A DNA stretch of 64,000 nucleotides, from assembly GCF_044324785.1 (NCBI RefSeq), contig NZ_CP172127.1; one strand, written 5' to 3'. The position numbers were made by a program. The stretch comes from Escherichia coli (lineage in GTDB: Bacteria > Pseudomonadota > Gammaproteobacteria > Enterobacterales > Enterobacteriaceae). Shown here piece by piece: positions 43,901-45,119 of the stretch; positions within the stretch are counted from its first letter, which is position 1, and each line of letters opens with the position of its first letter.

Positions 43901-45119
43901 AAAAGCCGTTGATTTTACTCTCGTCAGCCATGCTGCCTGGTTCGGTTTGCCACATTTTTCCACTCCTGCTTTTAATGGTCAGGCAATGATGCTGATTGCG
44001 CCCGTGGCGGTGATTCTGGTGGCAGAAAACTTAGGTCATCTCAAGGCGGTCGCCGGGATGACCGGACGCAATATGGATCCATATATGAGGCGGGCATTCG
44101 TGGGCGATGGGCTGGCAACGATGCTTTCCGGCTCTGTCGGCGGTAGCGGCGTGACCACCTACGCCGAGAATATCGGTGTGATGGCCGTGACCAAAGTCTA
44201 CTCGACGCTGGTGTTTGTTGCTGCTGCCGTCATCGCCATGCTGTTGGGCTTTTCGCCGAAATTTGGCGCGCTGATCCATACCATTCCTGCACCGGTGATT
44301 GGTGGTGCTTCAATTGTTGTGTTCGGGCTGATTGCCGTCGCAGGCGTAAGGATCTGGGTACAAAACCGTGTCGATTTAAGCCAGAACGGTAATTTGATTA
44401 TGGTCGCAGTAACCTTAGTGCTGGGCGCGGGTGATTTTGCTCTCACGCTGGGCGGTTTTACGTTGGGAGGGATCGGTACAGCAACCTTTGGCGCGATTTT
44501 ACTCAATGCGTTGTTAAGCAGAAGGTTGGTTGACGTTCCACCGCCAGAAGTTGTTCATCAGGAGCCATAAACAGAAAACCGCCGGGGTAACCGGCGGTGA
44601 TGACTTTTTGACGAGCTTCAGACAAAAATGCATTCGTCACTGATTAGTCCGGCTAGTTGTCACTTTTGCCGTGACTGCTCTTGCCACCTTTTTTACCTGC
44701 TTCTGATGCTCTTTCGCGGTCTTCTGCAAAATTACCGGAACCGCCTCGATGGTTTGCCATTACTGACCTCCGTCTTGATGTAAACATCATATTGCATTGC
44801 ATAGAATTAACGCGGCGTATGGCGGTTGCCATATTTTCGCTACGTGGGACTAAGCTTAGTGAACTGACGAGGGCAGACCCGCGTTTGGTAATATCCTGCA
44901 ACAGCTTCTTAGCGAGAATAGATATCATCTCCAATAATTATCCATAAGCCGCTCTTATGATTAAAAAAACGCGATGAGATAAAAATGTATCATTTTGCGA
45001 CAAATTTACGCGCTTGTGAAAGTTGTTATAAATCAAATAAGTGGTTGTGAAATTTGCACTCTGAAAAGGACGTCTTATCTTTAAATAAGTGGTAGCGAAT
45101 CGCTACGGAATAGAGATAA

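Follow-up and report, generated by a model that had tools for sequence, protein, structure and literature searches.

A one-repeat ymdF allele in Escherichia coli very likely produced by a recent deletion within its own clone

Introduction

The products of ymdF, yciG and Salmonella STM14_1829/SEN1538 have been described as small, RpoS-dependent, disordered KGG-repeat "hydrophilins" (PMC5437024; PMC7161692). Deletion of ymdF in E. coli BW25113 lowered biofilm biomass about ten-fold, and H2O2, tobramycin and ciprofloxacin killed more of the mutant cells (PMC9262955). Single deletions in S. Typhimurium were without an acid-growth phenotype, and the paralogues behaved redundantly (bioRxiv 10.64898/2026.04.09.717482). 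YciG and STM14_1829/SEN1538 carry the same Pfam repeat as YmdF, are likewise RpoS-dependent and disordered, and have partly redundant roles, but they are encoded at loci different from that of ymdF. The ymdF gene of K-12 MG1655 (WP_001273658.1, b4518) is 174 nt long, lies between rutG and wrbA, and encodes a 57-aa hydrophilin of the KGG-repeat / con-10 family with two ASEAGKKGG units.

A 35-aa form of the protein is already catalogued (RefSeq, UniRef) and is common in O157:H7, where it is recorded as a "general stress protein" (WP_001273654.1); its recurrent independent origin is what we add here. A literature search for ymdF length polymorphism, or for a link between the gene and O157, returned incidental co-mentions only. 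Deletions between short direct repeats were reportedly described in lacI of E. coli by Albertini et al. in 1982, and RecA-independent deletion of tandem repeats is said to have been studied by Bzymek and Lovett.

Here, we describe the short ymdF allele of one 64-kb stretch of E. coli DNA (the window, meaning the whole stretch that was analysed), reconstruct the deletion that separates it from the long allele, and place it among the alleles of its own clone, of complete E. coli genomes and of other enterobacterial genera.

A one-repeat YmdF in the window

Translation of the minus-strand ymdF ORF (Table 1) yielded a 35-aa protein, MANHRGGSGNFAEDRERASEAGKKGGKSSHGKSDN, with a single ASEAGKKGG unit, as a sequence-only reading of this DNA had claimed. 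The protein is identical to RefSeq WP_001273654.1 and is a one-repeat, KGG-family small stress protein; glycine makes up 7 of its 35 residues (20%), and reading along the sequence we see just two large hydrophobic residues, M1 and F11. ORFs that overlap ymdF on the opposite strand are mechanical calls without support.

Pfam KGG (PF10685), the stress-induced bacterial acidophilic repeat motif, has a gathering cut-off of 20.4 bits and matched the 35-aa protein at 39 bits in one stretch (residues 10–30, full model 1–22), against 67 bits in two stretches for the 57-aa reference. After the deletion, YmdF thus retains one complete KGG unit, together with its C-terminal tail. At E ≤ 0.01, neither form (35 aa or 57 aa) had a match among the curated NCBIfam models. 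Other evidence must therefore underlie RefSeq names such as "con-10 family general stress protein"; the absent match has no bearing on KGG membership. By analogy with its orthologues and paralogues, the window YmdF would be under RpoS control and disordered.

The sequence-only reading had also put the K-12 protein at about 57 aa with two ASEAGKKGG units, had proposed the in-frame loss of one repeat, and had called for a direct alignment to K-12 ymdF. Its description of the K-12 protein was accurate, WP_001273658.1 being 57 aa, and in the alignment the two genes differ in length by 66 bp, so that exactly one repeat period is missing in frame. In DNA and protein alignments to K-12 and to E. coli N3, whose YmdF is 57 aa as in K-12 MG1655, one gap of exactly 66 nt (22 aa) accounts for the whole difference in length, and 35 of 35 aligned residues are identical between the window and K-12 proteins. 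By alignment the window protein is without K-12 residues 17–38 (equivalently 27–48: QHSGGNFKNDPQRASEAGKKGG), leaving one KGG repeat in place of two.

The surroundings of the gene indicate that the two alleles occupy an orthologous locus. The order rutF-rutG-ymdF-wrbA-yccJ-agp is common to the window, K-12 (b4518), N3 and three further loci (L014–L016), and the ribosome-binding site and terminator are the same in K-12 as in the window. The Shine-Dalgarno sequence also aligns without change to that of long-allele strains. In L014, a long-allele sister from the same clone as the window, the promoter region of ymdF is 100% identical and the terminator-like hairpin between rutG and ymdF is the same, the flanks being 100% identical. 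Among complete genomes, that of E. coli N3 is the closest, at 99.5% over 20 kb; strain 042 comes next, at 98.2%.

Table 1. Features of the ymdF locus, in window positions
Feature	Position	Strand	Remarks
rutG	43242..44570	+	442 aa; convergent neighbour 3' of ymdF; exact RutG sequence used as lineage marker
Bidirectional intrinsic-terminator-like hairpin	44578..44598	.	8 pairs, 7 of them G-C; between convergent rutG and ymdF
ymdF CDS, short allele	44653..44760	-	35 codons plus TAG stop; ATG start
Remaining 26-nt repeat core, GCATCAGAAGCAGGTAAAAAAGGTGG	44684..44709	-	gene nt 52–77; deletion junction somewhere inside
Shine-Dalgarno GGAGG of ymdF	44767..44771	-	6 nt 5' of the ATG; read from sequence and alignment
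wrbA	45138..45734	+	divergent neighbour upstream of ymdF; coordinates mapped from L016; conserved ymdF synteny

Anatomy of the deletion

Repeat analysis of the L014 long allele revealed two 62-nt units, 76% identical and spaced at 66 nt, which share a perfect 26-nt core, GCATCAGAAGCAGGTAAAAAAGGTGG. The window ymdF is identical in DNA to this long allele of its own clone minus 66 nt, and the subtraction can be made at 27 equivalent consecutive offsets, all of them inside or at the edges of the core. The 66 nt missing relative to the long allele would sit at the one core that remains (Table 1), and the resulting junction keeps both frame and register exactly. A window-wide search found the 26-nt core once in the 64 kb, and a direct-repeat search at the window ymdF locus found none left.

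The deletion thus has its endpoints in a perfect repeat, has cost the gene one period and has kept one copy, the outcome expected of slipped-strand or short-homology deletion. In these respects, and in its recurrence at the same site, it is like slippage deletions in E. coli. Slippage had been thought plausible from the sequence alone, and that reading is supported by the breakpoints, which fall where slippage would put them, within a perfect direct repeat of 26 nt. When the single-stranded DNA was folded, no hairpin that might assist misalignment rose above chance (z = −0.43), which indicates that nothing besides the direct repeat promotes it. The repeat copies of the paralogues differ in protein sequence (for example, ASDAGRKGG versus ASEAGKKGG in YciG), and for this reason the paralogues may lack a long perfect DNA repeat.

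In the mechanism that we propose, two perfect 26-nt repeats 66 nt apart would misalign, and a 66-bp, 22-codon KGG period would be removed in frame, the likely route being replication slippage or RecA-independent short-homology deletion. The product would be a one-repeat disordered protein of 35 aa that could still be expressed. Judged from the anatomy of the junction and from established E. coli mutagenesis, slippage appears the most likely origin. Taken with the comparisons below, we hold it to be very probable that the window allele is derived, having arisen through a recent 66-bp slippage or short-homology deletion within its own clone, independently of O157:H7 and other lineages, and that its 35-aa product is expressible.

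Frequency and independent origins

A 200-nt junction query detected the short allele in 349 of 5,426 complete E. coli genomes. The same number is obtained by subtracting the 5,067 genomes with the long allele from the 5,416 that have ymdF, and a junction-specific query placed the contraction in 345 genomes. About 299 of the 349 carry it at 99% identity or more to the O157:H7 haplotype, and about 50 fall in the 95–99% band, on other backgrounds. The allele is present in every O157:H7 genome among the matches listed; outside O157:H7 it occurs in about 50 of some 5,100 genomes, with few members per clone. The assembly collection has the exact 35-aa sequence in over 30,000 of its blocks, and the protein collection has it on at least 1,000 contigs; the CDSs filed under WP_001273654.1 for O157:H7, DETEC-P829, CPww7, 184/2aE and APEC E12053 all translate to the window sequence. 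Variants of 35 aa with species-typical C-termini bear the names E. albertii, E. fergusonii and Shigella flexneri.

Identity of the protein conceals a diversity of haplotypes. The short-allele loci that we compared represent at least 10 flank haplotypes, and the flanks of the window differ from those of the others by 77–229 SNPs over about 3 kb. On the K-12 background, 184/2aE and E-ge-1 carry the short allele and MG1655, C600 and J53 the long one, yet their 6-kb flanks are 100.0% identical; the allele of 184/2aE is the K-12 allele minus 66 nt, with the K-12-specific GGTGGT kept. Among ST95-like strains, APEC E12053, EC21GDE043, 19AR1321 and 19AR0253 are short, whereas NU14, APEC O18 and the type strain ATCC 11775 are long with flanks 100.0% identical to those of the short strains. 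With the window's own clone, such long and short pairs with identical flanks exist in three backgrounds, which argues against a single origin followed by recombinational spread. By these alignments the 66-bp contraction is homoplasic, with separate origins in the window clone, in K-12-like and ST95-like strains and in other haplotypes, and it is therefore unsuitable as a lineage marker.

The O157:H7 allele illustrates the point. Its protein is 100% identical to that of the window, the same 66 bp are deleted in the same core, and the gene lies at the corresponding place, with rutG on one side and wrbA, or the wrbA-side junction, on the other. The nucleotide haplotype is nevertheless a different one, 92–93 SNPs away over about 3 kb, and its origin is independent. 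The upstream sides differ as well: prophage genes upstream of ymdF replace wrbA, yccJ and agp in O157:H7, whereas the window keeps these three genes. At two O157:H7 loci (L005, 863–2042; L011, 1–2011), AntA/P22_AR_C, zf-dskA_traR, DUF4752 and Ead_Ea22 are found directly upstream of the short ymdF. wrbA is known to serve as an integration site of Stx phages, and the upstream prophage genes of O157:H7 are consistent with this.

Functional meaning and selection

The 35-aa form is probably neutral or mildly hypomorphic and maintained by recurrent mutation, as far as its sequence and distribution allow a judgement. Alternatively, the contraction might be recurrently selected, tuning or inactivating YmdF and so altering biofilm or stress tolerance in certain niches. 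We regard such selection as unlikely. The presence of the contraction in every O157:H7 genome among the matches listed and on at least 10 flank haplotypes would fit, and the phenotype of the ymdF deletion in BW25113 gives selection something to act on (PMC9262955). The allele is, however, rare outside O157:H7 and has few members in each clone, as expected of recurrent mutation without positive selection, and the Salmonella paralogues show functional redundancy (bioRxiv 10.64898/2026.04.09.717482).

A related proposal, for which we see rather little chance, would make ymdF a hot spot that mutates in one direction only, with selection favouring the loss of one repeat time and again; the contraction is present in every O157:H7 genome among the matches listed and sporadic in at least nine other backgrounds. 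If this were true, a shorter disordered KGG protein could alter biofilm formation, stress tolerance or antibiotic tolerance, and repeat number in hydrophilin-like proteins would be a natural tuning knob.

We prefer the neutral or mildly hypomorphic reading, and the finding is real but ordinary and matters little. It has two practical sides. As a phenotype of ymdF deletion has been reported (PMC9262955), the natural one-repeat variant is a ready test of KGG repeat number; and ymdF is at risk of being divided erroneously into two "genes" by pan-genome or annotation pipelines.

Recent origin within the clone

Using the exact window RutG protein as a lineage marker, we read 25 contigs that carry it and found a 57-aa YmdF on 23 and a 35-aa YmdF on 2. 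Along 7,329 bp, no difference separates the window from the short-allele locus L016. The long-allele sister L014 likewise matches the window at 100% over about 7.3 kb, save for the 66-bp indel, and the event must therefore be recent.

The short allele could in principle be an artefact of assembly or sequencing, in which a short-read assembler collapsed the repeat units of a gene that truly has 57 codons. A 26-nt perfect repeat is indeed present at the locus, and the long allele is the one seen on 23 of the 25 window-lineage contigs read. Yet any modern read crosses both 26-nt copies and the 40 nt of unique sequence between them, k-mers above 26 nt in length resolve the repeat, the identical clean 66-bp loss appears in 349 complete genomes (the Sakai and EDL933 records among them), both L016 and one similar place in the window lineage are short as well, and the junction falls precisely in frame and in register. 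An artefact is accordingly very improbable.

Import of a short allele by homologous recombination, for example from O157:H7, is a shade harder still to credit. Recombination is frequent in E. coli, and the window protein is identical to the O157:H7 protein WP_001273654.1, both of which count for import. At the DNA level, however, gene nt 27 and 99 are T in the window allele and in the long allele of its own clone but C in O157, and several flanking SNPs also separate the window from O157. The flanks of the window are moreover those of the long-allele L014, at 100% identity over about 7.3 kb, and 77 SNPs over about 3 kb separate the window from the nearest short-allele haplotype besides its own. 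Recombinational import of the O157 allele was rejected on this SNP pattern; a deletion within the clone remains the preferred origin.

Polarity and irreversibility

Within the long allele, 24% of positions differ between the two units, and the segment lost from the window encodes unique residues, QHSGGNFKNDPQR. Duplication from short to long is impossible because the lost unit is unique sequence. In Klebsiella, Citrobacter, Enterobacter, Pluralibacter and Salmonella, two-repeat forms of 57, 56 or 55 aa are the norm. The divergence of the units, together with the prevalence of two-repeat forms in E. coli and in other genera, indicates that the short allele is derived. That the short form is instead ancestral and the 57-aa form its tandem duplication has next to no chance of being right and was rejected: only the formal symmetry of indels speaks for it, whereas duplicating a short allele cannot give two units that are just 76% identical, the long allele is carried by 5,067 of the 5,416 complete E. 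coli genomes having ymdF and by other enterobacterial genera, and the short alleles sit at the tips of clones that are otherwise long (the window lineage and the ST95-like and K-12 backgrounds).

The deletion is irreversible, and ymdF is consequently not phase-variable; the reversible, high-frequency gain and loss of units that defines a phase-variable contingency locus is not a property of this gene. The exact 79-aa product of a three-repeat expansion was absent among about 15 billion proteins, and the proteins of unusual length inspected among the best 120 homologues included no repeat expansion. Among these best homologues, those of 58–91 aa proved to be upstream starts, C-terminal frameshifts, insertions of 1–2 residues or distant homologues. 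The missing 79-aa form is an asymmetry; simple slippage could yield expansion too.

Other variation at the locus

Annotation of the short allele is uneven. In the RefSeq record of Sakai (NC_002695.2, 1309247–1309446) the 35-aa ymdF is unannotated, and it is annotated in other O157:H7 records. Where named, it appears as "general stress protein", "con-10 family" or "KGG domain-containing protein", without the gene name ymdF. At rutG, a mechanical ORF at 43128–44570 lengthens the protein to 480 aa by way of an upstream TTG; exact matches in public assemblies are to the 442-aa RutG that begins at the ATG at 43242, not to the 480-aa extension.

Further changes were seen in individual genomes. E. 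coli FCI56 (L019, 2966–3074) combines the short allele with a Gly6-to-Cys substitution (MANHRCGSG..., WP_487535294.1). In a 4.50-Mb genome (L010; CP182549.1, 3326–4420), an intact short ymdF lies beside a rutG that has been split into several small ORF fragments; the flanks of this locus, at about 7% divergence from the remaining loci, suggest that the genome is decaying or is a non-coli Escherichia/Shigella-like one. A few genomes have only partial ymdF matches: Ec1120 retains 44% of the gene, as a "KGG domain-containing protein" (NZ_CP126598.1, 2761561–2761637), and in strain 44 an IS621 insertion lies near the partial match. Such matches point to disruptions at the ymdF locus other than the 66-bp deletion.

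The intergenic regions vary too. In E. coli N3, an insert of about 1.4 kb that carries three hypothetical CDSs separates yccJ from agp (L022, 16093–17286). The window and its clone-mates are without this insert, and yccJ (45755–45982) adjoins agp (46020–47261) across a junction at 45983–46019. Between ymdF and rutG, K-12-type strains have about 175 bp extra (L001, ~710–965; L008, L019 and L020, ~3075–3330), an element that is missing from the corresponding window interval, 44571–44652. It is probably a dispersed repeat, since a 6-kb query that included the element matched a median of 24 places per genome.
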